Position numbers and translations under genes: made by a program. Positions 4,902 to 39,572 of a stretch of 64,000 nt of DNA are shown here, piece after piece. The first letter of the stretch is position 1, and the number at the start of each line of letters is the position of its first letter. Below the pieces are notes generated by a model. That model was given only the letters and a program-made list of their open reading frames with translations. It was not told the DNA's origin and ran no database searches. Source of the stretch: Gammaproteobacteria bacterium (lineage in GTDB: Bacteria > Pseudomonadota > Gammaproteobacteria > Ga0077536); contig JAIEQK010000011.1 in the NCBI GenBank assembly GCA_019747795.1, forward strand, positions 7,737 through 71,736, read 5' to 3'.

Positions 4902-5234
4902 ATGGCCCTGCACGCGGCCTGGGGATGGGTGCTTGGCGCCATCGTCGCGGAAACGATCGCCGCGCTCGCGCTCCGCGCGAGCGATGGTTTTACCCGTCCG
5001 CTGCCGGCGCTGTTGGCGACGGCGAGTTTCGCCTGCGCCTTCTATCTCACCAGCCTGGCGCTGGTGGTCCTGCCGGTCAGCCTGGTCTACCCGGTGTGGG
5101 CGGGCGGCGGCACGGCGGGCGCCGCGACCGCGGCGCTGTGGCTCTACGGCGAGCGTGCCGGCGCGCAAAAGATGCTGGGCGTCGCCGCCGTCGTGGCCGG
5201 CATCGTGGTGCTGAACATCGCCGCGCCCGCGTGA
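4902..5234 (+). CDS. SMR-family protein, subunit B of the paired SMR transporter.
   Basis: Paralogous to the preceding ORF (VAETIAALALRASDGF..., LVYPVWAGGGTAG) and separated from it by 7 nt. This arrangement is typical of heterodimeric SMR pumps. Confidence 0.8.
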   Translation: MALHAAWGWVLGAIVAETIAALALRASDGFTRPLPALLATASFACAFYLTSLALVVLPVSLVYPVWAGGGTAGAATAALWLYGERAGAQKMLGVAAVVAGIVVLNIAAPA

Positions 5235-5251
5235 GCGGGAGAGGAGAGCAG

Positions 5252-6379
5252 ATGGGCGTCTACCTCCGCTACTTCGGTACCCACCTGCTGCTGCTGGTGA
5301 CCGCCGTAGGCTTCCTCCTCGGCGGCGCCGCTCACTGGCTCGGTCTCGCCAGCGGCGTGGTGGTGTGGATCGGCGCAGACGCGCTCAGCCCGCGCGTGGG
5401 CGCCGCGCCCGCCTATCGCCATCGCGCGCTGCTGGACGTCGCGCTCTACAGTCTGTTCCCGCCGCTCGCGGCGCTGACGGCGATTTTCGCCTGGAGCCTG
5501 TCGAGGACCGATGTCCTCGGCTTCGGCGCCTGGCTGCACTCGGCCTTCGGCTACGACGCCCTCGCGGCGCGCGCGGCGACCGCCGGCTGGGACCTGGTGG
5601 GTGGGGCCTGGTCCTTCGCCCTCGCCATCGCGCTCGGCGGCATCCTGGTCGCGCACGAACTCGTGCATCGCACCCGCGATCCACTCGCGCTGGCGGTTGG
5701 GCGCTGGATGCTCGCCATCGCCTTCAACGCCACGCTCGAAGTGGCCCACGTGTTCGGTCATCACCGCGACGTCGGCACGCCGGCGGATCCGACCACCGCG
5801 CGCCGCGGCGAGAGCGTCTATCACTTCTACCTGCGCTCGACCTTCGGGCAGGTAGCCCAGGCCTGGCAGATCGAGCGTGAGCGCCTGGCGGGTGCCTCCG
5901 CGTGGCAACGCTGGTGGAGCAACCGTGTGCTGCGCGGCTTCCTGCGTTCGTGGAGCGTGGCCGGCGTGTTCTTTGCCGTTGGCGGCTGGCGCGCGCTCGG
6001 CGTGTTCCTGCTCGCCGCCGCCTACAACAAGCTGCTGCTCGAAGCGCTCAACTACATGGAGCACTACGGCCTGGTGCGCGTGCCCGGCACGCCGATAGAG
6101 CCACGCCACTCCTGGAATTCCGTGAGCGCCTTCAGCCATGCCGTGCTGTTCAACCTGCCCTGGCACGCCGATCACCATGCGCGCAGCCAGGTTCAGTACC
6201 CGGAACTGCACGCGACCGAGACCGCGCCCGTGCTCGGCCAGGGCTACCTTGCCACGTTGCCGCTGGTGCTCGTGCCGCCCCTGTGGCGCAGGCTGATCGC
6301 CCCCCGCCTGGCCGCCTGGGATCGCGAGCGCGCGAGCGCGGCGGAACGTTGCCTGGTGGGAGGGGACGGCGGTGGGTGA
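5252..6379 (+). CDS. Integral-membrane di-iron hydroxylase/desaturase of the AlkB/fatty-acid-desaturase family.
   Basis: Three histidine boxes: HELVHR, HVFGHHRD and HADHHAR. Multiple TM helices. RBS GAGGAGAG lies 4 nt upstream of the ATG. Confidence 0.7.
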   Translation: MGVYLRYFGTHLLLLVTAVGFLLGGAAHWLGLASGVVVWIGADALSPRVGAAPAYRHRALLDVALYSLFPPLAALTAIFAWSLSRTDVLGFGAWLHSAFGYDALAARAATAGWDLVGGAWSFALAIALGGILVAHELVHRTRDPLALAVGRWMLAIAFNATLEVAHVFGHHRDVGTPADPTTARRGESVYHFYLRSTFGQVAQAWQIERERLAGASAWQRWWSNRVLRGFLRSWSVAGVFFAVGGWRALGVFLLAAAYNKLLLEALNYMEHYGLVRVPGTPIEPRHSWNSVSAFSHAVLFNLPWHADHHARSQVQYPELHATETAPVLGQGYLATLPLVLVPPLWRRLIAPRLAAWDRERASAAERCLVGGDGGG

Positions 6380-6429
6380 GCGCCCATGTTGCTTTGACAC
6401 GAGGGCATGAGGCGCGGTGGCGTCGTCGG

Positions 6430-7650
6430 TCAGGGGGCAGGCAGCGGAGCGCGTACCGGCAGGCAGAGCGTGAGTGCGAAACAGAGTACGAGCATGAGGC
6501 TGCTGCCGAGCAGGCAGGCGCTCATGCCGCCCACTGCGGTAAGCGTGCCGGACAGCAGCACGCCGCACAGACGCCCACCGGCGTTGGCCGCGTAGTAGAA
6601 GCCGACGTCCTCGGCTGCCTTCTCCGAGCCCGCGTAGGCGAGGATGAGGTAGGAGTGCAGCGAGGACATCACCGCGAACGCGCCGCCGAACGCGCACAGT
6701 CCCGCGGTGACGATCAGCGTTGCGTGCCGCGGGTCGCTGGTGGTCAGCAGCAGCGCGATCGCGAGCGGCAGGCTCACCAGTAGCGCGCTCCACAGGCGAG
6801 CTTCCGGGACTTCGCGGGAGAGACCGTCAGGGCTGCGGCGCACGAGGCGCGGCGCGAGTGCCTGCACCAGGCCGTAACCGATGGTCCACAGCGCGAGGAA
6901 GCCGGCCACTTCCATGTAGCGCCAGCCGTGCGCGTAGAGAAACACCGGCAGGCCGACCACGAACCACACGTCACGCGCGCCGAACAGGCACAGGCGCGCG
7001 GCGGCCATCAGGTTGACGGCGCGCGACTTGGCGAAAAGCTCGCGGATGGAGCGCGAGGCCTTGGCCTGGCCGAGCGCGCGGGGCAGGGCGAGCGCCGTGA
7101 GGATCAATACGCTCACCAGGGCGGCGGCCATCACCGCCAGCGCGCCGCGAAACCCCAGGGCCTCGAGCAACACGCCGCCGAGGAAGAAGCCGATGCCCTT
7201 CATGGTGTTCTTCGAGCCGGTGAACCAGGCCACCCAGCGGAACAGGCGACCGTGCTCGCCGGCCGAAGTCGCCTTTAGCGCGGACTTCGCCGCGGTCTTG
7301 GTGAGGTCCTTGGCCACCCCGGCGACGCCCTGCGCGAGGACGACACAAGCGACCGACAGCGGCGCCTGCCAGCCGGGGTCGAGCGCCGCCAAGGCGCCGA
7401 TGCCGAGCAACTGCAGGACCATGCCGGTCATCAGCATCCGCGGGATGCCGTAACGGGTCGCGAGCCAGCCACCGACCAGGTTCGCGACCACGCCCGCGCC
7501 CTCGTACAGCACGAACAAGCTCGCGAGCTGCACGGGCGTGAAGCCCACGCGGTTGAAGTGGAGCAGGATGAGCGTGCGCAGCGCGCCGTCGGTGAGGGTG
7601 AATACCCAGTAGGCACCGGTCACCACCGCGTAGCTGCGCACGGCGGACAT
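6430..7650 (-). CDS. arsJ: MFS transporter ArsJ-like (organoarsenical 1-arseno-3-phosphoglycerate efflux permease), gene partner of GAPDH.
   Basis: 12-TM MFS protein starting [17 protein letters not shown]. Its start codon overlaps the gapdh stop by 1 nt (TGATG). The gapdh-arsJ pairing is characteristic of ars operons. Confidence 0.75.
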   Translation of the reverse strand: MSAVRSYAVVTGAYWVFTLTDGALRTLILLHFNRVGFTPVQLASLFVLYEGAGVVANLVGGWLATRYGIPRMLMTGMVLQLLGIGALAALDPGWQAPLSVACVVLAQGVAGVAKDLTKTAAKSALKATSAGEHGRLFRWVAWFTGSKNTMKGIGFFLGGVLLEALGFRGALAVMAAALVSVLILTALALPRALGQAKASRSIRELFAKSRAVNLMAAARLCLFGARDVWFVVGLPVFLYAHGWRYMEVAGFLALWTIGYGLVQALAPRLVRRSPDGLSREVPEARLWSALLVSLPLAIALLLTTSDPRHATLIVTAGLCAFGGAFAVMSSLHSYLILAYAGSEKAAEDVGFYYAANAGGRLCGVLLSGTLTAVGGMSACLLGSSLMLVLCFALTLCLPVRAPLPAP

Positions 7651-8693
7651 CAGGCGTCCCGCGCCGCCACGATGCTCGCCAGATCGATCATGCGACACGC
7701 GTAGCCGGCCTCGTTGTCGTACCAGGCATAGACCTTGAGCAGGGTGTCGTCGGTCACCAGCGTGCTCGGACCGTCGATGATGGCGCTGCGCGTGTCGTTG
7801 GCGTAGTCGGCGGAGACCAGCGGGCGCGACTCGAAGCCGAGGATGCCGGCCAGCGGGCCGGCGGCGGCGGTCGCGAACAGCTGGTTGATTTCTTCCGCGG
7901 TGACCGCGCGCCGCATTTCGAACACGCAGTCGGTGAGGCTCGCGTTCAGCACCGGCACGCGTACCGCGTGGCCGTTCAGCTTGCCGGCCAGCTCCGGGTA
8001 GATGAGGCCGATGGCCGTCGCGCTGCCGGTGGTGGTCGGCGCGAGCGACAGCAGCGCCGAGCGCGCGCGGCGCAGATCCGCGTGGGGCGCGTCGACCACC
8101 ACGTTGGTGTTGGTCGGGTCGTGCAGCGTGGTGATCTGTCCATGGCGAATGCCGATGGCTTCGTGCAGCACCTTGACCACCGGCGCGAGGCAGTTGGTGG
8201 TGCAGGACGCGGCGGTCAGCAGCCGATGTTCGGTGGGGCGGTAGAGATGATCGTTCACGCCGACCACCACGTTCAGCGCGCTGCCGTCCTTGACCGGCGC
8301 CGCGACGATGACACGCTTCACGCCCTGCCGAAAATAGCCTTCGAGGGTTGCCTGAGTGAGGAAGCGTCCGGTGCATTCCAGCACCAGATCGCAGCCGAGT
8401 GCGCCCCAGGGCACGTCGCCAGGGTTCGGCAGGGCGCTGAAGCCGATGCGTGTACCGGCGACGCTCAGCGCCCCGGGTCCGTCCACCGCTATTTCCGTGC
8501 GCCAGCGGCCGTGCACGCTGTCGAATTCCAACAGGTGCGCGGTGGCCGCCGCGCCGCCCTTGATCTCGTTCACGTGGACGATCTCCAGCCGCTGCGCGCG
8601 GCGGGGATCGTCCACCGGGCGCGGCAGGCCGCCGAGCGCCGCGCGTGCGACCAGGCGCCCGATGCGCCCCATGCCGTTGATGCCGACTCGCAT
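7650..8693 (-). CDS. gapdh: Glyceraldehyde-3-phosphate dehydrogenase, ars-operon associated.
   Basis: [13 protein letters not shown] Rossmann N-terminus. Catalytic '[10 protein letters not shown]' motif. C-terminal WYDNEAGY signature. Confidence 0.9.
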
Positions 8694-8706
8694 TCCTGGT
8701 GCTCCT

Positions 8707-9246
8707 TCAGCTGGTGAGTTCATCGTCGCCGTCAACGGCGCGCGGCAAGCGGCCGATGTCGTCGAGCTTGCGTTGCAAGGTGAGCGAGTCCAGCGCCGCC
8801 AGGGGCAGGCTCAAGAAGAGTTCGATGCGCCGCTTGATCTGCAGCGTCGCCTGCTCGAACGCGCGCCGTCGGCTCTCCGGCGAGCCGCCCCTCAGTCCAG
8901 GATCGTCGATGCCCCAGTGCGCGGTCACGGGCTGCCCCGGCCATTGCGGGCAGGTCTCGCCGGCGGCGGCGTCGCACAGGGTGAAGATGAAATCGAGGCG
9001 CGGCGCCGCGGGGCGGGTGAATTCGTCCCAGGACTTGCTGCGCATGTTCTCGGTCGGCAGGTGCATCTCTTCGATCATGGCCCGCGCGAGCGGATGCACG
9101 AAACCCGACGGGTGGCTGCCGGCGGAATAGGCGCGAAAACGTCCGCCGCCCAGGTGTGCGAGCAGCGCTTCAGCGATCAGCGAGCGCGAGGAATTGGCCG
9201 TGCACAGGAAGAGCACCGCGTAGCAGATGTCGGGCGTTGCGGTCAT
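8707..9246 (-). CDS. arsC: Arsenate reductase ArsC, low-molecular-weight phosphatase family (thioredoxin-coupled type).
   Basis: CX5R P-loop 'LCTANSSRS' at the N-terminus, plus downstream Cys pair ([15 protein letters not shown]). ~179 aa. Confidence 0.85.
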
Positions 9247-9329
9247 GCCGCGGGTCTCGGCGTCGAGGGTGGGCGTCGAAGGTAGAAGGGCATTGTTACC
9301 AATAGGTGACGCGTGGCGAAGGCGTGTTA

Positions 9330-9350
9330 TTTAGTTGTCATTGACAACCG
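9330..9350. promoter_or_regulatory. Perfect palindrome TTGTCATTGACAA in the arsC/marR divergent intergenic region. Candidate operator.
   Basis: TTGTCA-T-TGACAA inverted repeat seen directly in the sequence, 50-60 nt upstream of the MarR start. A second GGTT-N10-AACC dyad follows. Confidence 0.3.
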
Positions 9351-9398
9351 AATGCGCGGCAACTACCTTGCGATCATGGTTTCCACTAGCAACCAATC

Positions 9399-9881
9399 AT
9401 GACAGACACATCCACTGCCGGCGCGCTGCTGCGCGAGATCGCCCGCAGGTATTCCCGCGCGCAACGGGTGGTCGCCGACTGTTGCCGGGCGACAGGCACC
9501 CAGTGCCATCTGCTGACCGAGCTGGATGGTGCGGGACCGCTCTCACTGATCGATCTCGGCGCCCGCCTGTGCCTGGAGAAGAGCTGGGTGTCCCGCGCGG
9601 TCGATGCCATGGTCCAGCGCGGCCTGGTCACCAAGGAGCCCAACCCCGCGGACGCGCGCAGCTGGCTGGTCACCTTGACCCCGGCCGGCGCGCAGACCGC
9701 CGCCGAACTCAACCGCAGCCTGGACAACCACGCCGAGCAGCTTCTGGCCGGGCTCAATGCCCGCCAGCGCGCGAGCGTCGAAGCCAGCCTGCACCTCCTG
9801 ATGGAGGCCCTCAAACAGGACGGCGCGGCCAACTGCTGCCTGCCCGCCACCACGAAGAAAGGAGCGAACGCATGCTGCTGA
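9399..9881 (+). CDS. MarR-family transcriptional regulator with vicinal-cysteine pairs at both termini.
   Basis: wHTH core 'LTELDGAGPLSLIDLGARLCLEKSWVSRAVDAMVQRGLV'. N-terminal 'ADCCRATGTQC'. C-terminal tail 'ANCCLPATTKKGANACC*'. Confidence 0.75.
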   Translation: MTDTSTAGALLREIARRYSRAQRVVADCCRATGTQCHLLTELDGAGPLSLIDLGARLCLEKSWVSRAVDAMVQRGLVTKEPNPADARSWLVTLTPAGAQTAAELNRSLDNHAEQLLAGLNARQRASVEASLHLLMEALKQDGAANCCLPATTKKGANACC

Positions 9882-11749
9882 ACGAATCCCTGCGTCTGCG
9901 GCCCGCCACGCCGGCCGACTGGCCGATGATCGCGAGCTTGCTGGAATGCGAGCAGCTGCCCCTGGCCGGCGCGCGCGAACACCTGGCCACCTTCGTGGTG
10001 GCGGTCCTGGACGACCGCGTGGTGGGCGTGGCCGGCGCCGAAGTCCATGGCGATGTGGCCCTGCTGCGTTCGGTGGCGGTGGAGAAGGGGATGCAAGGTC
10101 GCGGCATCGGCCGGCGCATGGTCGAGCTGATGCTGAGTGAGGCCGCGCGCCGCGACATCGTCGAGGTGTATCTCCTCACCACTGGCGCCGCCGAGTACTT
10201 TCCGCGCTTCGGTTTCAGCCCGCGCGAGCGCGCGAGCGCGCCCGCCGCGCTGGCGGCCTCCGCGGAGTTCCAGGGCGCCTGCCCGGACTCGGCGGCGCTG
10301 CTCGGTCTGCGCCTGCGCGATCGAGTGATGCCGAGCGGCGAGCTGCCGGTTGCCGTAATCGGCGCCGGGCCGGTGGGGCTGGCCGCGGTGGCGCGCCTGC
10401 TCGAACGCGGCATCGAGCCCCTGGTGTTCGAAGCGGGCGCCACCGTGGCCGCGAGCTACGTCGACTTCGGTCACGTGCGTCTGTTCTCGCCCTGGCGCGC
10501 GAACATCGACCCGTGCATGGCCGCGATGCTCGAGGCCCGCGGCTGGACGCCGCCGCCCAGTGAAGATCTGCCGCTCGCGAGCGAGGTCGTGAGCGGCGTG
10601 CTGGAACCCTTTGCCGCGCTGCCGGAAGTGGCGCGCAGCCTGCACCTGCAAAGCAAGGTGGTGGCCATTACGCGCGAGGGCCATGACAAGGTGCAGAGCG
10701 CAGGCCGCGAGGCCGCGCCCTTCGTCCTGCGCGTCGAGCGCGACGGTGTCGTGCAGGAGTTTCGCGCACGCGCCGTGATCGACGCGAGCGGCACCTGGCA
10801 GTCGCCGAATCCGCTGGGCGGGAACGGCCTGCCGGCGCTGGGCGAAGAGCAGCTGGCGACTTTCATCCACTACGGCATTCCGGACGTGCTCGGCAGCGCG
10901 CGAGCGCGCTATGCCGGCAAGCGCACGCTGGTGGTCGGCGCCGGTCACTCCGCGGCGAACAGCCTGCTCGCCCTGGCCGAACTGGCGCGCGAAGCGCCGG
11001 GCACGCGTTTCGTGTGGGCGGTGCGCTCCGAGTCGCTCGCCCGCGTGTTCGGCGGCGGCGCGGCCGATGGCCTGCCGGCGCGCGGCCAGCTTGGCCAGGC
11101 GCTGAAGGCGCTTCGCGACTCGGGCCAGATGGAGTTCGTGAGCGGCGTACGTATCGACGCCATGGAACGCGACGGCAAGGCCTTGCGCGTGCGCGGCCGA
11201 CGGGTCCGTGGCGAGACGGTGGACATCGCGGGCATCGACGAGATCATCTGCGCCACCGGTCAGCGACCCGATCTCGGCATGACGCGCGAACTGCGCCTGG
11301 CGCTCGACCCCTGGCTGGAATCGGTCCAGGCCCTCGGGCCGCTGATCGATCCCAACCTGCACAGCTGCGGCTCGGTGCGCCCCCACGGGCACCGCGAGCT
11401 GTCGCACCCGGAAGCGGGCTTCTACACCGTCGGCGTGAAGAGCTACGGCCGCGCGCCGACCTTCCTGATGATGACCGGCTTCGAACAGGTGCGCTCGGTG
11501 GTGGCGGCCTTGGCGGGCGACCTCGCGGCCGCCGACCGGCTGGAGCTCGAACTCCCCGAGACCGGCGTGTGCTCGGTCAGCGCCGATCTCGACCTGGGTG
11601 CGGGCAGCGCCTGTTGTGGGACGAGCGAGGTCGAGATCCCGGCGCCCTCGGCCAGCGCCTGCTGCGCGGCGCCCTCGGCATCGATGCCAGCGGCCGAGAG
11701 CGCCTGCTGCGCGAAGCCGGTCGCCAAGCCTGCGGCCTGCTGCGGCTGA
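9872..11749 (+). CDS. Fusion protein: N-terminal GNAT acetyltransferase (ArsN-like) plus FAD/NAD(P)-binding flavin monooxygenase/oxidoreductase (ArsO/CzcO-like) plus a C-terminal tail of four Cys-Cys pairs.
   Basis: GNAT motif 'VAVEKGMQGRGIGRRMVE'. Two Rossmann dinucleotide motifs: 'VAVIGAGPVGLAAVARLLERG' and 'TLVVGAGHSAANSLLAL'. Tail 'SACCGTSEVEIPAPSASACCAAPSASMPAAESACCAKPVAKPAACCG*'. The start overlaps the marR end by 10 nt. Confidence 0.7.
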   Translation: MLLNESLRLRPATPADWPMIASLLECEQLPLAGAREHLATFVVAVLDDRVVGVAGAEVHGDVALLRSVAVEKGMQGRGIGRRMVELMLSEAARRDIVEVYLLTTGAAEYFPRFGFSPRERASAPAALAASAEFQGACPDSAALLGLRLRDRVMPSGELPVAVIGAGPVGLAAVARLLERGIEPLVFEAGATVAASYVDFGHVRLFSPWRANIDPCMAAMLEARGWTPPPSEDLPLASEVVSGVLEPFAALPEVARSLHLQSKVVAITREGHDKVQSAGREAAPFVLRVERDGVVQEFRARAVIDASGTWQSPNPLGGNGLPALGEEQLATFIHYGIPDVLGSARARYAGKRTLVVGAGHSAANSLLALAELAREAPGTRFVWAVRSESLARVFGGGAADGLPARGQLGQALKALRDSGQMEFVSGVRIDAMERDGKALRVRGRRVRGETVDIAGIDEIICATGQRPDLGMTRELRLALDPWLESVQALGPLIDPNLHSCGSVRPHGHRELSHPEAGFYTVGVKSYGRAPTFLMMTGFEQVRSVVAALAGDLAAADRLELELPETGVCSVSADLDLGAGSACCGTSEVEIPAPSASACCAAPSASMPAAESACCAKPVAKPAACCG

Positions 11750-11758
11750 GACGCGTCG

Positions 11759-12946
11759 ATGTCGCGCACCGCGACCGTGGTCGTGCTCGGCATCGGCCAG
11801 ACGCTGGGTTGGGGCTCGACCTACTACCTGCCCGCGGTGCTGGCCGCGCCGATGGCCCAGGAACTGGGCGTGCCGACCGCGATGGTCTACGCGGCGTTCT
11901 CCGCGTCGCTGGTTCTGTCCGCCCTGGTCGGTCCGCTGGCCGGGCGTCTCATCGACGCCCACGGCGGACGCGGACTGCTGATGGCGACCAACGTAGTCTT
12001 CGCGCTGGGCCTCGCCGCGCTCGGCGCCGCGCAGGGCGTGCTCTCGCTGTTCGCGGCCTGGGCGGTGCTCGGCATCGGCATGGGCAGTGGGCTCTACGAG
12101 GCGGCGTTCGCCACCGTGGTCAGGCTGTGGCGCTACGAATCGCGCAACGCCATCACCGGCATCACGCTCATCGCGGGCTTCGCCAGCACCGTGGCCTGGC
12201 CGCTCAGCGCCTGGCTGAACGCGGAGTTCGGTTGGCGCATCGCGTGTCTCGCCTGGGCGGGGCTGCATCTCGGCGTCGCCTTGCCCTTGCACATGCGCGT
12301 GCCGCGTCCTTCGGCGGACGAGGCGCCAGCCGAGCAGAGCGCCGCGTCGACGCCGACGTCGGAGCACCGCTCCACACCTGAACTGCTGCCCGCCAATCCC
12401 ACCGTCACCGCGGCCGTGCTCGGCTACGTGTTCGCCGTCACCTGGTTCATCGCCACCGCGATGGCGGCCCATCTGCCGCGCATGCTCGAGGCGGCCGGCG
12501 CGAGCGTGACGCTGGCGGTGGCGGCGGGCGCCTTGATCGGCCCGGCCCAGGTGGGCGCGCGATTGCTGGAGTTCAGCCTGCTGCGCCACATCTCCCCGCT
12601 GTTCTCCGCCAGGCTCGCGGCCCTGGCCCATCCGCTCGGCGCGCTGGTGCTGCTGTTCGGCGGAGGCGCCTACGCCGCCGCGTTCACGGTGCTGCACGGC
12701 GCGGGTAACGGCATCCTGACCATCGCCAAGGGCACCTTGCCGCTGGTGTTCTTCGGCCCGGATGGCTACGGCGCCCGCCAGGGCTGGCTGATGCTGCCGG
12801 CGCGGGTCGCGCAGGCCGTCGCGCCACTTGCCTTCAGCCTGGCCCTGGACGGACTGGGTGGCCAGGTGGCCTGGTTGTCCGGTGGACTCGCGACCAGTGC
12901 GCTGCTGGCGCTGCTGGTGCTCAGACCGCCCGTGCGGCGCCTATGA
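11759..12946 (+). CDS. MFS transporter. Possible metalloid/organoarsenical efflux permease.
   Basis: 12 predicted TM helices. MFS signature region 'GPLAGRLIDAHGGRG'. Lies 10 nt downstream of the GNAT-FMO gene. Confidence 0.7.
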   Translation: MSRTATVVVLGIGQTLGWGSTYYLPAVLAAPMAQELGVPTAMVYAAFSASLVLSALVGPLAGRLIDAHGGRGLLMATNVVFALGLAALGAAQGVLSLFAAWAVLGIGMGSGLYEAAFATVVRLWRYESRNAITGITLIAGFASTVAWPLSAWLNAEFGWRIACLAWAGLHLGVALPLHMRVPRPSADEAPAEQSAASTPTSEHRSTPELLPANPTVTAAVLGYVFAVTWFIATAMAAHLPRMLEAAGASVTLAVAAGALIGPAQVGARLLEFSLLRHISPLFSARLAALAHPLGALVLLFGGGAYAAAFTVLHGAGNGILTIAKGTLPLVFFGPDGYGARQGWLMLPARVAQAVAPLAFSLALDGLGGQVAWLSGGLATSALLALLVLRPPVRRL

Positions 12947-13060
12947 ATACGTCGAGTGACCCATGCGCGTCTCGCGCCGTCCACGGCAGCGCGGAACCCC
13001 ACACGGGCTGTCTCCCACAACCATCACCATCACCCTGAACCTTCAACCGAGGATAGACAC

Positions 13061-13339
13061 ATGAGCACTCTCTCCATGCGCGATCGCGAACTCGTGGCGC
13101 TGGGCGCCGCGCTGGCCAGCAACTGCATCCCCTGCATCGAGTTCCACGTGCCCGCCGCCCGCAAGGCCGGCCTGAGCGACGCCGACATCGCCGAAGCCAT
13201 CGCGCTGGCCGACAAGATCCGCAAGGTCCCGGCGGACAAGGCGCTCGATGCCGCGCACGCGCAGCTGGGCGCGGCGCCGGCCGTGGCTGGCAGCGCCTGT
13301 TGCGCGCCCTCGGCAGAGCCGGGCAAGGCGTGTTGTTGA
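13061..13339 (+). CDS. Carboxymuconolactone-decarboxylase/AhpD-like small redox protein with a C-terminal di-Cys-pair tail.
   Basis: AhpD-core CxxC motif 'ASNCIPCIEFH'. Tail 'SACCAPSAEPGKACC*'. 92 aa. Confidence 0.65.
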   Translation: MSTLSMRDRELVALGAALASNCIPCIEFHVPAARKAGLSDADIAEAIALADKIRKVPADKALDAAHAQLGAAPAVAGSACCAPSAEPGKACC

Positions 13340-13391: not shown

Positions 13392-14030
13392 ATGAACGAT
13401 TCGCCGAGCATCGAACTCGACTTCGATGTCATCGCGCGCGAGCAGTCTCCCGCGCTGCTGCGCTATCTGCGCCGACGTGTCGGGGACCACGCCGACGCCG
13501 CCGATCTCTTGCAGGAGACGCTGATCAAGGCGAGCCGTGGTCTCGGCAGCTTCGCCGGCCGCGCGTCGCTGCAGACCTGGCTGTTGGCCATCGCCCGCAA
13601 TGTCGCCAACGATTTCCTGCGCAGACCCGAGCGCCGTCACTCGTTCGTTGCGGTGGAGGAGGCCATCGAGGTGGAGGACGGCGCACTCGGCGTCGAGCAG
13701 CGCATGGAAGCCGACGAGACGAATCTTTGCGTGCGCGAAGTCATCGACAGCCTGACGCCGGACTACCGCGCGGCGCTCATCCTCCACGACCTGGAAGGTC
13801 TGGATTGCGAGCAGACCGCCGAAGTCGTGGGTGGCAGCGTGGGCGCGGTCAAGGTGCGCCTCCACCGCGCGCGCCTGCGTCTCAAGTCCGTGCTCGAGCG
13901 CAGGTGCGGCTTCTATCGAGACAGCGACAGCGTGCTGCGCTGTGAGCGACGGGACGTGTCGTCGATCCCCGCGGGTGGAGCAGCCGACCGGTCGCCAACG
14001 CCTCCGCGCGCGTTGGGCGTATTTCTGTAA
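13392..14030 (+). CDS. ECF-type RNA polymerase sigma-70 factor with a ~50-aa Cys-containing C-terminal extension.
   Basis: Region 2 'LLRYLRRRVGDHADAADLLQETLIKA'. Region 4 'YRAALILHDLEGLDCEQTAEVVGGSVGAVKVRLHRAR'. Extension '...RRCGFYRDSDSVLRCERRD...'. Confidence 0.8.
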   Translation: MNDSPSIELDFDVIAREQSPALLRYLRRRVGDHADAADLLQETLIKASRGLGSFAGRASLQTWLLAIARNVANDFLRRPERRHSFVAVEEAIEVEDGALGVEQRMEADETNLCVREVIDSLTPDYRAALILHDLEGLDCEQTAEVVGGSVGAVKVRLHRARLRLKSVLERRCGFYRDSDSVLRCERRDVSSIPAGGAADRSPTPPRALGVFL

Positions 14031-14287: not shown

Positions 14288-14440
14288 ATGAGCGCCGAGC
14301 TCGAGAAACGCCGAGACGAGGCGCTGGTCAGCGTCGCCTGGCTGGCGGACAACCTCGATCGACCGGGCCAGCGCATCGTCGACATGCGCAAGGGCGATGG
14401 CTATGACGCTGCCCACATACCCGGGGCCGTCAGCCGATGA
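14288..14440 (+). pseudogene. Truncated rhodanese/sulfurtransferase N-terminal fragment (50 codons).
   Basis: Translation 'MSAELEKRRDEALVSVAWLADNLDRPGQRIVDMRKGDGYDAAHIPGAVSR*' matches the start of a rhodanese domain through the AHIPGA motif, then hits a stop. Neither continuing frame extends the domain. ATGA overlap with the next ORF. Confidence 0.35.
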
Positions 14441-15216
14441 CTACCCGTGTAATCCTGTCCGGGCGTGACGCCGAACTGGTCGCTCAGGTTCGTAGGCGCC
14501 TGGCGGCAGCGTGTGACGGTCGAGGGGGCATGACGATTGAGGTGGCATCCGCCGCCGGCGCATCCTGCGATCTCTGGATCGCGTTGGACCCCGGCGCGGA
14601 CGGCCCGCCGGCGCCGCCGCTGCGGCCACGCTACGTCGATTGGTCGTTGCTTGGTGGCTGGTGGGCGAGCAACCGACAGGCGCATGCCGATCCCAGCGCC
14701 GCGTACGCCGCGCTGGACGCGCTGCTGCAGCCGCGTATCGCCGTGCTGCTTGCGCTGCTGCCGGTGCCGGGCGGACCCGCCGCCGCGGAATTCCACGCCA
14801 GCCTGCGCGTGCAGGACCTGCCGCGCAGCGTGGCCTTCTACGCCTGGCTGCTCGACACCTGGCCGCGGGAGTGGACACACCGCTATGCGACCTTCATCCG
14901 GCCGGATCTCGCGCTCAACTTCGTGCTGATGGTCGCCGACGGCAACGCGCTTCACCACGACACGCTGTATCACCTCGGGATCGCGCTGCCGGATCGGGCC
15001 GCGGTCATCGATGCCTATCACCGCGCGCGCGCTTTCGGCGCCTGCATCTCGAAGCCGCCGCGCACGACCTGGCGGGGAACGCCACTGCACGAACTGTGGC
15101 TGGAGGATCCCGACGGTACGCTGATCGAGATCTATGCGCGCCTGACGCCCGCGGAACTGGCCGACATGCCGGCGGACCAGGCGCCGGTGTTCCTGGTGCC
15201 CGGCACGGCGCCGTGA
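14437..15216 (+). CDS. VOC-superfamily (glyoxalase/bleomycin-resistance/dioxygenase fold) protein with an uncharacterised ~110-aa N-terminal region.
   Basis: C-terminal half 'FHASLRVQDLPRSVAFYAWLLDT...HLGIALPDRAAVIDAYHRARAFG...HELWLEDPDGTLIEIYAR' is typical of glyoxalase-I-like beta-alpha-beta-beta-beta modules. It has no vicinal Cys, so it is not an ArsI-type C-As lyase. Confidence 0.6.
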   Translation: MTTRVILSGRDAELVAQVRRRLAAACDGRGGMTIEVASAAGASCDLWIALDPGADGPPAPPLRPRYVDWSLLGGWWASNRQAHADPSAAYAALDALLQPRIAVLLALLPVPGGPAAAEFHASLRVQDLPRSVAFYAWLLDTWPREWTHRYATFIRPDLALNFVLMVADGNALHHDTLYHLGIALPDRAAVIDAYHRARAFGACISKPPRTTWRGTPLHELWLEDPDGTLIEIYARLTPAELADMPADQAPVFLVPGTAP

Positions 15217-18127: not shown

Positions 18128-18493
18128 TCAGCAGCACTGCTCGCCGCTGCAGCACGCGCCGGCGCCGGGCGCGGACGGCGCATCGCCCTGACGAGCCCAG
18201 CGCGCGAGCTCGGTGCGGCTCGGATAACGACCGTTCAAAACCGCCTCGCCATCCACGAGGACGAGCGGCAGGCCGGCCTCGCCACTGGCATGCAGAAAGG
18301 CGCTGACGACCGGGTTGTTCGCGAAATCGAGCGGCGCCTGGGCGAGATTGTGGCGTTGGACATCGACGCCCTGGCTGCGCGCCCATTCGAGGTCGGCAGC
18401 GAAATAGAGCAGGGCTTCGTCGACGTCGACGCCGCATACACCGCTCGCACAGCACAGGGCCGGGTCGTAGATGTCGATGACAGGCACGGTCAC
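18128..18493 (-). CDS. arsD: Arsenical-resistance metallochaperone/repressor ArsD.
   Basis: 'MTVPVIDIYDPALCCASGVCG' (Cys12-Cys13-Cys18 As(III) site). C-terminal 'GACCSGEQCC'. Closely parallels canonical ArsD. Confidence 0.9.
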   Translation of the reverse strand: MTVPVIDIYDPALCCASGVCGVDVDEALLYFAADLEWARSQGVDVQRHNLAQAPLDFANNPVVSAFLHASGEAGLPLVLVDGEAVLNGRYPSRTELARWARQGDAPSAPGAGACCSGEQCC

Positions 18494-18570
18494 TCCTCTC
18501 GTTCAGGTCTCGCCCCATCGGGCGGTGCAGTGGGACAACATGCGTCCTGCGCGGAACGGCGCGGACCTCG

Positions 18571-18936
18571 TCACTTCGCTGCCACGCGGGGCCGCGCGGT
18601 CTTTGCTGGCCGGCAGGACACCGACGCAAGGGCGTCGACGCACTGCTCGGGATGGCCCTGGCAACACTCGTCGGTGAGGAAGGCCACCAGCGCCTGCACC
18701 GCCGGCAGCAGCGCCCGGTAGCGTTGGAAGCGCCCCTCGGAGGTCACGGCGACCAGGCCCGCATGGGTCAGGGTCTTGAGATGGAAGGAGAGGTTGGCCG
18801 GCGTGACGCCGAGCGCGGTGGCGATTTCGCCGGCCACCAGGCCCGTGGGCTCGTGGCGCACCAGGAGGCGGAAAGTCTCCAGGCGCACAGCGGAGGACAG
18901 GGCCTCGAAGACCTTGCTGGCATCGGCAGAGCGCAT
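18571..18936 (-). CDS. arsR: ArsR-family As(III)-responsive repressor with a C-terminal Cys-Cys-x-Cys sensing site (atypical/AfArsR-like type).
   Basis: wHTH 'VRLETFRLLVRHEPTGLVAGEIATALGVTPANLSFHLKTL'. No Cys in the DNA-binding helix, but C-terminal 'DECCQGHPEQC'. First gene of arsR-arsD-arsA-acr3. Confidence 0.8.
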   Translation of the reverse strand: MRSADASKVFEALSSAVRLETFRLLVRHEPTGLVAGEIATALGVTPANLSFHLKTLTHAGLVAVTSEGRFQRYRALLPAVQALVAFLTDECCQGHPEQCVDALASVSCRPAKTARPRVAAK

Positions 18937-19061
18937 GTCGATTGATTCAATGCTTAAAGAGACATTAAAACGTCGTGGCGCCTGCGTCGTCAACCGACGC
19001 TGGGCATGCACGGGCGTTCAGGGTGCCGCTCACGACCCGGCGCGAACGCCGCGCCGGCCGG

Positions 19062-32441: not shown

Positions 32442-32470
32442 GTTGCCTATCAGGTTGAAAGCGATCTAGC

Positions 32471-33934
32471 GTGATGTCGACCAACGCAGTACCGGCCACT
32501 GTATTGCCCGTGATCCTCGCCGGGGGCGGGGGCACGCGGCTGTGGCCCCTGTCGCGCGGCCACTATCCCAAGCAATTCCTCGCGCTGGGTGGTGAGGAAT
32601 CGCTTCTGCAACAGACGCTTACGAGAGTCGCCGCGCATCCTTCGCTGACCGTCGCCGCGCCGCTCGTGGTGTGCAACGAGGAGCATCGCTTCCTGGTGGC
32701 CGAGCAGGCCCGCCTCGCCGGCGTGGCCTTGGACACGATTCTGCTCGAGCCGGTGGGCCGCAATACCGCCCCGGCGCTGTCCGCCGCCGCGCGCCTCGCG
32801 GTCCGCACCGGTGACGATCCCCTGATCCTGATGATGCCCTCCGACCACCTGATCGCCGACCGCGACGCCTTTCAGCGTGCCGTGTCGGTGGGCGCCACCC
32901 TCGCCGCGCGCGGCGACGTGGTGACCTTCGGCATCGTGCCCACCCGGGCCGAAACCGGCTACGGCTACATCGAACTCGGCGACGAGGAGGCCGGCGAGCA
33001 TCGCCCGGCGGCCTTCGTGGTGCGCGCCTTCAAGGAAAAGCCCGACCAGGACACCGCGCGCCGCTACGTGGATGGCGGCGGCTACCTGTGGAACGCCGGC
33101 ATCTTCATGATGCGCGCCTCCACCTGGCTCGCCCACGCGGAACGCCTCTGCCCCGAGATCACCTCGGCCGCAACCGCTGCCGTGAACGGCGGACGCCAGG
33201 ACGGCGACTTTTTCCGCCTCGACGTCGCGGCCTTCGAGGCCTCGCCGAGCGATTCCATCGACTACGCGGTGATGGAGCCCCTGGGCGCGATCGGCCAGGT
33301 GCGGGTCGTGTCGCTGGATGCCGGCTGGTCCGACGTCGGCTCGTGGGGCAGCCTGTGGGAAGTCTCCCGCCAGGACGGCGACGGCAACGTCACCCGCGGC
33401 GACGTATGCGCGCTCGACTCCCGCGGCAACCTGCTGTTCGCCGAGCATCGCCTGCTCGCGACGCTTGGCTGCGAAGATCTCGTGGTGGTGGAGACCGCCG
33501 ATGCCGTGCTGGTGGCCGACAAGGGCCGCACCCAGGATGTGAAGGCCGTCGTGGACTGGCTCACCCGCCAGAATCGCGACGAACGCCTCGCCCATCGTCG
33601 CGTCTATCGACCGTGGGGCACCTACGAAGGTGTCGATGGCGGCGACCGCTTCCAGGTCAAGCGCATCGTGGTCAAGCCCGGCGCCTCGCTGTCGCTGCAG
33701 ATGCATCACCACCGGGCAGAACACTGGATTGTGGTCAAGGGCACAGCGCGGGTGACGCGGAACGAGGAAGTATTCCTCCTGAGCGAGAACCAGAGCACCT
33801 ACATTCCCCTTGGCGCCACCCATCGCCTGGAGAATCCCGGCGCCATCCCGCTCGAGATCATCGAAGTGCAGTCCGGCCCCTACCTCGGCGAGGACGACAT
33901 CGTGCGGTTCGAGGACAAGTACCGCCGGGCATGA
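32471..33934 (+). CDS. manC: Bifunctional mannose-1-phosphate guanylyltransferase / mannose-6-phosphate isomerase (GDP-mannose pyrophosphorylase).
   Basis: N-terminal nucleotidyltransferase motif 'LPVILAGGGGTRLWPLSRGHYPKQFL'. C-terminal cupin 'VVKPGASLSLQMHHHRAEHWIVVKGTA'. Confidence 0.85.
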   Translation: MMSTNAVPATVLPVILAGGGGTRLWPLSRGHYPKQFLALGGEESLLQQTLTRVAAHPSLTVAAPLVVCNEEHRFLVAEQARLAGVALDTILLEPVGRNTAPALSAAARLAVRTGDDPLILMMPSDHLIADRDAFQRAVSVGATLAARGDVVTFGIVPTRAETGYGYIELGDEEAGEHRPAAFVVRAFKEKPDQDTARRYVDGGGYLWNAGIFMMRASTWLAHAERLCPEITSAATAAVNGGRQDGDFFRLDVAAFEASPSDSIDYAVMEPLGAIGQVRVVSLDAGWSDVGSWGSLWEVSRQDGDGNVTRGDVCALDSRGNLLFAEHRLLATLGCEDLVVVETADAVLVADKGRTQDVKAVVDWLTRQNRDERLAHRRVYRPWGTYEGVDGGDRFQVKRIVVKPGASLSLQMHHHRAEHWIVVKGTARVTRNEEVFLLSENQSTYIPLGATHRLENPGAIPLEIIEVQSGPYLGEDDIVRFEDKYRRA

Positions 33935-34018
33935 GACAGGCTCGCGCCCCTCAATCGGCACGCGCCGCGCTCACCGCGCCCAGAACGCCATAACGACAAT
34001 CACATTCGGGAGAGAGTC

Positions 34019-34597
34019 ATGAACAAGCATTCGCGCCGAGGCCTGCTGGCCCGCACCCTGTTGCTGCTGAGCCTGGTCGCCCCCTGGGTGACGACGTTCG
34101 CCCAGGAAACCAGCGCCGACTACCCGATCAAGCCCGGCGACACCCTCATCGTCAATGTCTGGAAGGAACAGGACCTGACCATGGAAGTGCTGGTGCGCCC
34201 GGACGGCAAGTTCAGCTTCCCGCTCGCCGGCGACATACAGGCCGCGGGCCGTTCCGTCGAGCAGGTGCGCCAGGACGTGGTGGCGAAGATCTCCTCCTAT
34301 ATCCCAGACGTGGTCGCGACCGTGATGGTCAAGATGATCGACGGCAACCGCGCCTACGTGGTTGGCAAGGTCTTGAAACCCGGCCCCATCCTCATGCTCT
34401 CCCAGACCAACGTCATGCAGGCCCTGTCCATGGCCGGCGGCACGGTGCAGTTCGCCGGGCTCAAGAACATCAAGATCCTGCGCGGCCAGGGTGGCGCCCA
34501 GACCGCCATCCCGTTCAACTACGATGAAGTGGAGGACGGGGAGAACCTTGAGCAGAACGTGGTGCTGGAGCCGGGGGATGTGGTGGTGGTGCCGTAA
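34019..34597 (+). CDS. Polysaccharide export protein (Wza/GumB-like Poly_export + SLBB, PEP-CTERM-locus type).
   Basis: Signal peptide. 'PGDTLIVNVWKEQDL...VRPDGKFSFPLAGDIQAAG' export motif. 192 aa. Confidence 0.75.
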   Translation: MNKHSRRGLLARTLLLLSLVAPWVTTFAQETSADYPIKPGDTLIVNVWKEQDLTMEVLVRPDGKFSFPLAGDIQAAGRSVEQVRQDVVAKISSYIPDVVATVMVKMIDGNRAYVVGKVLKPGPILMLSQTNVMQALSMAGGTVQFAGLKNIKILRGQGGAQTAIPFNYDEVEDGENLEQNVVLEPGDVVVVP

Positions 34598-34629
34598 GGC
34601 GCGGCCGCGTGTGGGGGGACGTTTCAACC

Positions 34630-35865
34630 ATGGCTAAACGCTGCATAGTCGCGGGACTGGGGATGGTCGCGCTGTGTGGGCAGGGGGCTCAAGCGGTGGA
34701 CCTTTCATGGGCGCCGCAGCTTAGGGTAGGGACTCGGGCGACGGATAACATCCAATGGACGACCACTGGAAAGGAAGCTGCCCTTGGCTTCGATACTGGA
34801 GGCGGTCTAGCACTCAAAGCCGTCGCTCAGGCGTGGAACTCCGCGGTAAATCCGTCATTTAACTTTCGTAGATTTCTCATTGGTGAGGACATCGACGCAG
34901 ACGAGTACGGGGTAAGGAGCCAGCACCAGTACAAAGTGACAGAACGTGTGCAGACTTCATTGCAGGCCGATTACGTGCGCGATTCGACACTGAGCTCAGA
35001 GCTTACCGACGCCGGGCGGAGGAACGACGTGGCAAACCGCGATACGCTAACTATCGCGCCAGGGGTGAATTACCTCGTCACCGACAGCACGGTCGTGAAC
35101 GCAAGCTACATGTATTCAGACGTTGGATTTGATGCTTCGCTCGATCAGGGATTCGTTGATTACACGTTCCAGCAATGGTCGGCGGGCACCACGCATTTCG
35201 TATCCGGGCGACTGCAGGTTTCTGCGAATTTCTTCGTCACCGATTTCGAAGTTGCCAGCACAAGCAGCGAGACTTGGACCTATGGCGGAATGGTGGGAGC
35301 CACTTACAGTTGGTCTGACAGCTTGTCCACCACGGGGAGCGTGGGTTATCAAACCGCCAGCACAGACTTCGTCGAACAGATTCTGACCGTAGTACCGGGA
35401 ACCAATCCGCCCCAGATTGTGGTCGTGGAGCAGCCCGCCAACTCGAAGTCGAGTGGCCCGATTGCCAACTTCGGTATCAGGAAGCGCTTCGCGAACATGC
35501 GGGCAGAGTTCAACTATGCGCGGCGCGTGAGCCCCAGTGCTCGCGGCGCTCAGACGCTAGAGGACGACATCATGTTGAATATCGACTATGACGTCTCTGA
35601 GCGCTGGGGTCTCGGGTTTCGCGGGGGCTATAACCTGCGTAGTGCCCAGGCCGAAGAACTCGGAGGCGCAATTCGAGACCTGAACAGAAATCAGGGTTCT
35701 CTGGGCGGATCCGTGACATATAAGGCGAGCGAAGAGATTTCGTTTCGCGGCGAGTATCGCTTTACGCGCCAGACGCTTGCCGAGACTGATGAGCGGGTCT
35801 ATGTCCACGCGATGTTCGTCTCGATGATTTTCAATGGCGCACCTCATTTCCACAATGTCTTTTAG
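34630..35865 (+). CDS. Putative outer-membrane beta-barrel protein associated with the exosortase EPS locus.
   Basis: Signal peptide MAKRCIVAGLGMVALCGQGAQA. Alternating-hydrophobicity strands rich in Tyr/Thr/Ser/Asn. C-terminal aromatic 'HNVF'. Markedly lower GC than neighbouring genes. Confidence 0.45.
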   Translation: MAKRCIVAGLGMVALCGQGAQAVDLSWAPQLRVGTRATDNIQWTTTGKEAALGFDTGGGLALKAVAQAWNSAVNPSFNFRRFLIGEDIDADEYGVRSQHQYKVTERVQTSLQADYVRDSTLSSELTDAGRRNDVANRDTLTIAPGVNYLVTDSTVVNASYMYSDVGFDASLDQGFVDYTFQQWSAGTTHFVSGRLQVSANFFVTDFEVASTSSETWTYGGMVGATYSWSDSLSTTGSVGYQTASTDFVEQILTVVPGTNPPQIVVVEQPANSKSSGPIANFGIRKRFANMRAEFNYARRVSPSARGAQTLEDDIMLNIDYDVSERWGLGFRGGYNLRSAQAEELGGAIRDLNRNQGSLGGSVTYKASEEISFRGEYRFTRQTLAETDERVYVHAMFVSMIFNGAPHFHNVF

Positions 35866-36110
35866 ATATTCCATGGACGGGCGTGAAAACGGTAGGAAAC
35901 GATGGAGAAAGAAATCAAGTTCGCTCTGTACTGTGGACCGGCGAGCATGCGCCAAACGTGTCTTGTGAGAGATTCATCTTGCGGCCCGAGTTGACGTGCG
36001 TTGATCCGCCTTTTGTCGACTTAGCCACAAATCTTGTGGTGTCTGCGGCGCTTCAATAACAAAGGTTCCCCAAAACCAATTCCCTATGGAACTTCTCAAT
36101 AGGTCCAAAC

Positions 36111-37856: not shown

Positions 37857-37885
37857 GCCTCTTTCGAATCAATGGGATTTTTGCA

Positions 37886-38689: not shown

Positions 38690-38697
38690 GTAGCATC

Positions 38698-39546: not shown

Positions 39547-39572
39547 CGTGTCTTGAATATCGGATAATCAGC

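Follow-up and report, generated by a model that had tools for sequence, protein, structure and literature searches.

We analysed a 64,000-nucleotide stretch of DNA from a Gammaproteobacteria bacterium of the Ga0077536 lineage (assembly GCA_019747795.1, contig JAIEQK010000011.1, positions 7,737 to 71,736 of the forward strand), referred to here as the window, in which an arsenic island occupies about 6.4-19.0 kb and in which the G+C content around the arsenic region is ~70%. Three proteins of this island carry C-terminal tails with vicinal cysteine (CC) pairs, namely a MarR_ars-type repressor of 160 aa (9399-9881, plus strand), a fusion of an ArsN2 N-acetyltransferase with an ArsV-like NAD(P)/FAD flavoprotein (9872-11749, plus strand) and a small thiol protein of the AhpD/CMD type of 92 aa (13061-13339, plus strand). 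The C-termini quoted for them in a preliminary description of this DNA were all exact. The repressor ends in ANCCLPATTKKGANACC, with the pairs Cys146/147 and Cys159/160; the fusion ends in SACCGTSEVEIPAPSASACCAAPSASMPAAESACCAKPVAKPAACCG, with four CC pairs and a final -ACCG; and the AhpD-like protein ends in SACCAPSAEPGKACC, with the pairs Cys80/81 and Cys91/92, the latter forming the carboxy terminus (CC-COOH). The spacing between the pairs is 9-14 residues. The start codon of the AhpD-like gene is the ATG at 13061, which gives 92 aa in agreement with its homologues, and not the position 12956. The three proteins had been called adjacent, which holds for marR and the fusion gene, but the gene of an ArsK-related MFS transporter without a cysteine tail (11759-12946, plus strand) separates the fusion from the AhpD-like gene.

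The core folds of the three proteins are unrelated, as had been described: a MarR winged helix-turn-helix, an ArsN2 domain of the GNAT type joined to a flavoprotein with two dinucleotide-binding domains, and a CMD/AhpD domain. Because merely five of the 378 open reading frames of the window (six frames, stop-to-stop, at least 80 aa) have at least two CC pairs in their last 50 residues, and MarR, the fusion, the AhpD-like protein and ArsD are four of these five, the tails are not due to chance. Each tail was also said to be built from a reiterated nucleotide unit, AGCGCCTGYTGY. This unit occurs 4 times in the window against 0.17 expected, three times in the fusion tail and once in the AhpD-like tail, but it is absent from MarR, and it is simply the preferred codons for S-A-C-C. 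A recent DNA duplication as the origin of the tails was ruled out, the nucleotide strings that they share being S-A-C-C codons only.

The repressor matches Pfam MarR with 53 bits and MarR_2 with 47.3 bits, which indicates the winged helix-turn-helix fold. We found 547 homologues and aligned the best 120 of them with the window protein (121 sequences). Cys28, 29, 36, 146 and 147 are kept in 120-121 of the 121 sequences, Cys159 in 112 and Cys160 in 62. The tail, CC-x11-CC (9834-9878, plus strand), has the consensus ..AANCCLPxPERKExKSCC; its first pair (ANCCLP) is almost invariant and the final Cys or CC varies. The invariant N-terminal motif Cys28-Cys29-x6-Cys36 (ADCCRATGTQC, 9480-9506, plus strand) had been overlooked in the preliminary description. 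An N-terminal CC together with a C-terminal Cys is also present in distant homologues from Firmicutes, Xanthomonadales and Vicinamibacterales.

A regulator of this kind has been examined previously. AdMarR_ars of Achromobacter deleyi As-55 adjoins arsV and represses it, leaves the DNA on binding of As(III)/Sb(III), and shows a weakened As(III) response of a GFP reporter when carrying C36S, C37S or C157S (Yu et al., bioRxiv 10.1101/2021.08.12.456183). The same report lists marR upstream of arsV/arsN for Paenibacillus, Roseateles, Tahibacter, Luteitalea and others. We found the same marR-flavoprotein order in loci from Paenibacillus, Tahibacter and a Vicinamibacterales metagenome-assembled genome (MAG), each with a marR product carrying an N-terminal CC and C-terminal cysteines; marR stands directly before the flavoprotein gene in Paenibacillus, and a gap intervenes in Tahibacter and in the Vicinamibacterales MAG. 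In the window, marR lies directly ahead of the arsN2::arsV-like gene, and this arrangement recurs in three further loci (L173, L174 and L086). By its gene context and cysteine pattern the window MarR matches the published MarR_ars subfamily, of which it appears to be a member: it is a repressor whose gene, in an ars island, stands immediately before arsV/arsN, with an N-terminal Cys-Cys and C-terminal cysteine(s). Cys28/29 of the window protein would correspond in pattern to Cys36/Cys37 of AdMarR_ars, with a putative residue-by-residue mapping. Unlike the published triad, the window MarR and its 120 nearest relatives add Cys36 and a second C-terminal pair (ANCCLP-x9-SCC); the MarR_ars paper describes no vicinal-pair tail as such.

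The stop codon of marR overlaps the ATG of the fusion gene at 9872-9881 (gcATGCTGCTGA), and the codons of MarR's last two cysteines double as the start of the fusion. This overlap suggests translational coupling and would limit how freely that CC pair can evolve. Between arsC and marR, the palindrome GTTGTCATTGACAAC (9334-9348) is unique in the window (0 expected), lies ~50 bp upstream of marR and overlaps a TTGACA -35 box, and it is a candidate MarR_ars operator. Related TAGTTGCTATTGACAACC elements were seen by eye upstream of marR in the three loci named above; an exact search for GTTGTCATTGACAAC in 174 loci gave zero matches.

In the fusion, the ArsN2 domain (9872-10306) scores 139.9 bits against NCBIfam NF040501 over residues 16-145, above the cut-off of 125. 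The flavoprotein domain (10307-11575) matches Pfam Pyr_redox_3, Pyr_redox_2 and NAD_binding_8, and its GAGPVG motif is invariant. C215, C460, C499 and C567 are the only cysteines of the flavoprotein part, which has no CxxC or CxxxxC; Cys499 (11366-11368) lies within DPNLHSCG and Cys567 (11570-11572) within LPETGVC at the end of the domain. The tail that follows (57 aa, 11576-11746) is rich in A, P and S, with CC pairs at 11612-11617, 11660-11665, 11705-11710 and 11738-11743, and it ends in -CCG. In the AlphaFold2 model the tail (residues 419-480 of the flavoprotein domain) has a predicted local distance difference test score (pLDDT) of ~33 and is predicted to be disordered. Residues 320-366 as well as 419-480 fall below 50, and the model does not reliably place the tail, Cys499 or Cys567 with respect to the flavin. 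The best fold matches (Foldseek) are the bacillithiol disulfide reductase YpdA/Bdr, thioredoxin reductase (TrxR)-like FNR proteins and class B monooxygenases, with no close solved structure.

The tail is a nearly constant feature of this flavoprotein family, for which more than 8,000 homologue matches were obtained. At least one CC is present in all 120 nearest homologues, with or without the ArsN2 fusion, and 106 of the 120 end in CC or CCx. Searching a set of representatives at 50% identity gave 3,692 relatives; among the best 150 of them, 50 have a PETGVC-type motif and 43 of those 50 a CC tail, and a minority of more distant members have neither the motif nor the cysteines. We also collected a genome set of 80 species-level loci (45-63% identity) from Proteobacteria, Actinobacteria, Firmicutes, Chloroflexi, Bacteroidota, Verrucomicrobia, Gemmatimonadetes and Acidobacteria. 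PETGVC is found in 78/80, at least one CC in the tail in 77/80 and at least two in 46/80; the tails have a median length of 48 aa (range 8-106) and are rich in A, G, S, C, T and P. The metagenome set adds 69 complete copies, 65 of them with one CC or more, which gives a pooled count of 142/149, and the tails of homologues hold from one to five pairs. Among the same 149 homologues, the core motifs DPxxHxC (DPxxHSC in the style of the window) and PETGVC are present in 147 and 139, respectively, and 'GCGC' occurs in 40 tails. Cysteine makes up 10-13% of the tails versus 0.4-0.5% of the cores. A tail-less set for a contrast of gene contexts did not materialise, as a metagenome scan with ten tail-less seeds gave almost only tail-bearing genes.

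Profile scans of the flavoprotein gave weak ArsO and YpdA matches only and no curated Pfam or NCBIfam family; the score against ArsO (NF040505) is 31.4 bits, far under the cut-off of 425. It is 51% identical to an FAD-dependent oxidoreductase encoded between arsR and arsK on a plasmid of Ensifer adhaerens E-60, where the arsK neighbour scores 513 bits against NCBIfam ArsK (NF033733) and aio genes adjoin. The tail of the Ensifer protein is CCGGPAPVEADACCVADATAKSEGKSGCGC. ArsV is said to have been described from E. adhaerens, and because of this arsR-X-arsK homologue and the MarR_ars synteny the window family is very probably ArsV. ArsV is reported to give resistance to MAs(III) and Rox(III), the trivalent forms of methylarsenical and roxarsone, and ArsV homologues are reported as monooxygenases oxidising MAs(III) (bioRxiv 10.1101/2021.08.12.456183). 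The window gene resembles ArsV (Ensifer adhaerens ST2, Paracoccus sp. SY and Achromobacter As-55, with ArsK/ArsW as the efflux partner) in that it encodes an NAD(P)H/FAD flavoprotein within an ars operon, between a gene for ArsR or MarR_ars ahead of it and one for an MFS exporter behind it. Unlike these ArsV proteins, the window enzyme is fused to ArsN2, and its tail consists of (S/A)ACC-type repeats and closes with -CCG.

The window MFS transporter scores 236.7 bits against NF033733, below the cut-off of 400, and is thus a relative of ArsK and not an equivalog. The flavoprotein gene is immediately followed by that of an MFS homologue in 34/80 genome loci, and one or more ars genes are found no farther than 10 kb away in 52/80, counted with a query set without ArsB, ArsH, ArsM and Grx-type ArsC. 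Two isolates, Piscinibacter HJYY11 and Ideonella YS5, have the order arsR, VOC, arsC, (aqp or acr3), marR, arsN2::flavoprotein, MFS. On the plasmid pSSFR1 of Streptomyces sp. FR-008 (L089, 5980-8633), an ArsV-like flavoprotein (end ..GGCCGS) and an MFS transporter are encoded beside a classical arsRBOCT; ArsO is a separate gene there, distinct from the ArsV-like flavoprotein, and the vicinity also encodes another NAD(P)/FAD oxidoreductase and another ArsR. A 30-aa tail variant, CCGGPAxxxxxACCxxDxxAKxxGxxGCGC, was seen on an Ensifer adhaerens plasmid (L088, 8013-9428); it is common to many alpha-proteobacterial and other ArsV-like proteins and is covered by no profile library.

The AhpD-like protein scores 53 bits against Pfam CMD and 41.9 bits against TIGR00778 (cut-off 27.8). 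Its CxxC motif is Cys22/Cys25 (13124-13135), and the CC pairs of its tail lie at 13298-13303 and 13331-13336. We found 251 homologues; among the 120 listed, 109 have a tail CC and 106 end in CC or CCx, and Cys22 and Cys25 are invariant in 46 aligned sequences. AlphaFold2 predicts a confident four-helix core (residues 1-70, pLDDT 87-97) and a disordered tail (residues 71-92, pLDDT 42-49). The nearest structure is the CMD-domain protein RclX (7y4r), with which the CxxC motifs align. NCBIfam relates the protein to the AhpD domains of the selenoproteins MduS and GSU3128 and of an ArsM/AhpD fusion, in which selenocysteine (Sec) substitutes a cysteine of the CxxC motif (CxxU); since an ArsM/AhpD-domain fusion family exists in NCBIfam, the arsenic link has already been noted at curation level. 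The window protein shares the four-helix CMD core and canonical CxxC with RclX, the GSU3128 family, MduS and the ArsM/AhpD fusion, and it differs from known CMD proteins in its minimal core (~70 aa), its CC-x9-12-CC-COOH tail and its recurrent pairing with an extracytoplasmic function (ECF) sigma factor.

Of the ten gene contexts of the AhpD-like gene that we looked at, seven are arsenic-related, one directly follows hgcAB and the other two show no obvious metal genes. The arsenic-related ones comprise five ars islands (the window, L001, L091, L176 and L177), a module of marR_ars, arsN2, MFS, ahpD and ECF genes (L086) and a Geobacter locus with genes for Acr3, a molybdoenzyme, an ArsR-like protein, MarR proteins, thioredoxin and CcdA (L084). 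In this Geobacter MAG (8001-9481) the AhpD-like gene is followed by a thioredoxin gene with a signal-peptide-like N-terminus and then by one for a CcdA/DsbD_TM protein, with the Acr3 gene and a molybdopterin oxidoreductase gene with a cytochrome c7 gene nearby. Locus L091 (3183-7522) encodes an ArsR::ArsC fusion, Acr3, the AhpD-like protein, the ECF sigma factor and an ArsM-like methyltransferase (end ..APGGACC). The AhpD-like protein accompanies mercury-methylation genes too, being encoded directly behind hgcA (NVWCAAGK) and hgcB (..NCCS) in L090. There (5040-7306), the genes code for a MarR protein (SCCDECCGEQ near the N-terminus, ..DACCK end), HgcA, HgcB (end GGNCCS) and the AhpD-like protein with an ACC..SCC tail.

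An ECF sigma factor gene directly follows the AhpD-like gene in 7/10 of these contexts: in the window (13392-14030, plus strand) and in L001 (12312-12917), L086 (8351-8941), L091 (5636-6301), L092 (7326-7901), L176 (6342-6929) and L177 (6294-6851). The sigma factor has three cysteines that are invariant in a four-sequence alignment, one (Cys113) within a linker of the form NxCVRE and two (Cys172 and Cys184) within the C-terminal pattern C..YRD.D..RC, and it may be a thiol- or metalloid-responsive sigma factor. No obvious anti-sigma gene was seen beside the AhpD-like/ECF pair. In two proteins of 731-765 aa (P0244 and P0256), ArsN2, the ArsV-like flavoprotein and the AhpD-like protein form a triple fusion, with the AhpD domain and its tail placed after the first CC of the flavoprotein. 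The gene of P0244 (L001, 10001-12298) lies within an arsR-arsD-arsA operon, with the ECF sigma gene coming after it.

The remainder of the island is made up of familiar arsenic genes. Genes for ArsJ (6430-7620), the ArsJ-associated GAPDH (7650-8735) and an ArsC of the low-molecular-weight phosphatase type (8707-9246) precede marR on the minus strand. The plus-strand genes from marR to a VOC/ArsI-like gene (14437-15216) are closely packed, and acr3, arsA, arsD and arsR follow downstream of the VOC gene, back on the minus strand. ArsD (18128-18502) ends in GACCSGEQCC, a known type of vicinal-cysteine tail, and the product of the stop-to-stop open reading frame with arsR (18571-19017) ends in DECCQGHPEQC, a known type of As(III) site, both as the preliminary description had said. 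The ArsC, ArsJ, Acr3, ArsA, ArsD and ArsR genes are all at most 10 kb from marR. The VOC-fold protein is extended by 120 aa at its N-terminus and matches ArsI/CadI only weakly (46.6 bits, cut-off 116); a Glyoxalase gene similar to it comes after the AhpD-ECF-rhodanese genes in L176. Farther along the window, at 34000-40000, the G+C content falls from ~0.68 to 0.53-0.59 just past GDP-mannose and polysaccharide-export genes (32459-34597), and this part is probably a horizontally acquired surface-polysaccharide cluster.

The tails had been proposed to be a shared module appended to the three proteins in this island. This did not hold up, as the tails are of long standing in their respective families and were not added here. 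A search of Pfam and NCBIfam for a domain covering the tails gave nothing, even at E = 10, and the best-defined motif, CCGGPA..ACC..GCGC, when searched as a cross-family module by tblastn against PLSDB, matched flavoprotein tails only. Because of the missing profile match, the restriction of that motif to flavoproteins and the limitation of DNA likeness to S-A-C-C codons, we do not regard the tails as one transferable module. Tails of this style are also found on other ars-island proteins in the fetched loci, namely ArsR (..ECCxG..CC), ArsD (..GKSCC), an ArsM-like protein (..GGACC), small Cys-rich open reading frames and a VOC/ArsI-like protein of Streptomyces. The last is encoded right after the flavoprotein in two loci (L078, 11396-11905; L081, 11410-11916) and ends in DSTCCAPAAEPAAAGGCC, a pattern that nearly equals the tail of the window AhpD-like protein, on a fourth unrelated fold. 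The likeness of the tails is best explained by convergence, a thiolate arm having been acquired independently by proteins that deal with thiophilic metalloids. Their tie to arsenic loci is strong, as expected from the earlier description, but it is not exclusive, given the one AhpD-like gene after hgcAB and the two without metal genes.

As to their function, we consider it somewhat more probable than all alternatives together (about 55%) that the tails are flexible vicinal-thiol arms that bind trivalent metalloids for sensing or hand-off. Metalloid sensing within the MarR family has been shown in a homologue, and to this extent the proposal of an As(III)/Sb(III) capture or hand-off tag stands; a modular tag common to the three proteins is not supported. 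The CC tails are strongly kept within each family although their spacers vary. A single CC pair would bind R-As(III), and three thiols would bind As(III) or Sb(III). The genes marR_ars, arsN2::arsV-like, arsK-like MFS, ahpD-like and ECF sigma form an operon with three tailed products. In MarR, the tail cysteines together with Cys28/29(/36) would constitute the inducer site, at which As(III)/Sb(III) would free the repressor from DNA, as is the case for the homologue. The arm behind PETGVC of the ArsV-like monooxygenase would capture MAs(III), Rox(III) or Sb(III) and bring it to the flavin site, where oxidation to the pentavalent form would end the affinity for thiols, so that the product would be released and exported by the neighbouring MFS transporter. 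The AhpD-like protein, because it is found fused to the flavoprotein and in arsenic and mercury contexts, may carry or buffer the same species by means of its CxxC and CC-COOH tail, or else serve the enzyme as a thiol partner. Going further, the AhpD-like CxxC/CC-COOH protein and the three-cysteine ECF factor might form a thiol-based sensor pair and, at the same time, the three CC-tailed proteins might work through their tails as a protein-to-protein relay, a combination that we think improbable. The AhpD-like protein would then be an As(III)/soft-metal- or redox-sensitive partner of the sigma factor, or its anti-sigma factor, and trivalent (organo)arsenicals would pass from sensor or carrier to oxidase to exporter.

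Several points weigh against reading the tails as capture arms. Metalloid binding and hand-off by the ArsV-like and AhpD-like tails is suggested by sequence and gene context, and the ArsV assignment itself builds on synteny and a 51%-identical Ensifer gene whose own identity as arsV is likewise presumptive. The C-terminal vicinal pairs of E. coli ArsD are dispensable for its chaperone function, so that conserved CC tails need not be essential. Two of the AhpD-like contexts (L092 and L175) are those without obvious metal genes. The best structural neighbour of the flavoprotein is a thiol-disulfide reductase (YpdA/Bdr), its -CCG end resembles the GCUG/GCCG of TrxR, the AhpD-like CxxC is a redox-type motif that has CxxU relatives among selenoproteins, and the Geobacter gene adjoins genes for thioredoxin and CcdA. 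These last observations are also the ground for the main rival of the capture-arm reading, a redox relay in which the tails are mobile vicinal dithiol/disulfide centres as in high-Mr TrxR. Electrons would pass from NADPH to FAD, to the CC tail of the flavoprotein, to the AhpD-like CxxC/CC protein and on to a substrate, for which a peroxide formed by uncoupled turnover of the flavin, an oxidised ars protein and a pentavalent arsenical are candidates. In its favour, the flavoprotein family nearly always ends in -CCG, -CCA or -CC, TrxR-like proteins are among its fold matches along with YpdA/Bdr, and the ArsN2-flavoprotein-AhpD fusions resemble reductase-substrate fusions. But a classical disulfide-reductase mechanism is disfavoured because the flavoprotein core has no CxxC/CxxxxC redox disulfide to move electrons from FAD to the tail. 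Moreover, the ArsV homologues are reported to be monooxygenases, the MarR tail has no plausible redox partner and belongs to a family that answers to As(III)/Sb(III), tail length and CC-pair count vary too much for a precise redox centre, and a search for Cys-Sec (CU) read-through variants at the flavoprotein termini found none. We regard such a relay as unlikely, though it is the rival to be taken most seriously.

Less probable still is a passive sink, in which the tails would buffer As(III)/Sb(III)/Hg(II) in the manner of a metallothionein, or protect their own proteins, without delivery. The variable number and spacing of the CC pairs, the low-complexity A/G/S/P linkers, the presence of the same type of tail on many unrelated ars proteins and the dispensable pairs of ArsD would all fit, but one to a few sites on low-abundance regulators and enzymes give negligible buffering capacity, the conserved anchors (ANCCLP for MarR; PETGVC followed by CCG for the flavoprotein) point to a defined geometry, and the cysteine mutants of MarR_ars are impaired in signalling and not merely in protection. 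That the cysteines hold Zn(II) or an Fe-S cluster and stabilise oligomers seems to us quite improbable. Cys-rich C-termini often bind Zn, and GCGC, CxxC-like or GCGTSSCG motifs are present in some tails; on the other side, cysteine spacing is not conserved, the tails are predicted to be disordered, vicinal CC pairs make poor Fe-S or Zn ligand sets, and the tails are tightly linked to As/Hg loci. Finally, a non-functional GC-rich low-complexity extension, a read-through or a frame error could be suspected in a genome of such high G+C content, in which the SACC codons look like common GC-rich repeats. This reading is refuted by the conservation of the tails and retains hardly any probability: the same tails, and not sequencing or frame artefacts, recur in hundreds of independently assembled homologues with their CC positions kept at 40-99% identity, low-GC Firmicutes included. 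The G+C content at third codon positions in the tails (0.77-0.88) is typical of coding sequence here, and the AGCGCCTGYTGY motif is confined to these tails in the window.

The preliminary description held that such tails had not been reported for these families, which is wrong for MarR, published as MarR_ars. For the ArsV-like and AhpD-like proteins we found no such description; the accessible literature yielded none of the near-universal PETGVC-plus-CC tail of the ArsV-like family, of the AhpD-like CC-COOH protein as a recurrent component of ars and hgc loci, or of its pairing with a three-cysteine ECF sigma factor. The vicinal-thiol principle and the regulator part are already established, and the novelty is incremental, consisting of two further families and the AhpD-like/ECF pair. 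If the tails are capture arms, they would explain how a cytosolic flavin monooxygenase finds scarce thiol-bound MAs(III), roxarsone(III) or Sb(III), and the ArsV-like enzymes and the small AhpD-like protein would join the vicinal-thiol proteins of arsenic handling. PETGVC followed by a CC-rich tail, and a CMD core followed by CC-COOH, would then serve as annotation signatures for these unnamed families of ars and hgc loci.

Vicinal cysteines bind As(III)/MAs(III) in ArsD, AfArsR, SpArsR, ArsI and ArsM. The closest likeness in arsenic systems is to ArsD and to ArsR of the AfArsR type, which bind As(III)/Sb(III) by vicinal cysteine pairs or triads close to their C-termini and are both encoded in this island and in related loci. 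Unlike ArsD and ArsR, which have different folds, the window tails sit on an enzyme and a CMD-fold protein, and the transfer site of ArsD is N-terminal. In MerA, a C-terminal CC pair hands over Hg(II). HgcB and SaoC end in Cys-Cys-COOH (Haft and Gwadz). The window proteins resemble these three in having a flexible C-terminal vicinal pair on a flavoenzyme or small carrier for a thiophilic metal, but MerA, HgcB and SaoC belong to mercury and not arsenic systems and have no sequence homology to the window proteins, and MerA passes Hg(II) to a CxxxxC redox disulfide that is absent from the window flavoprotein. High-Mr TrxR likewise is a flavoprotein with two dinucleotide domains and a flexible tail ending in -Cys-Cys-Gly, and the vicinal pair 2-3 residues from the C-terminus that is typical of TrxR and MerA is present in the window flavoprotein (-ACCG). 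Unlike high-Mr TrxR, however, the window flavoprotein has no N-terminal disulfide of the CVNVGC type, and it carries several CC pairs in a tail of variable length.

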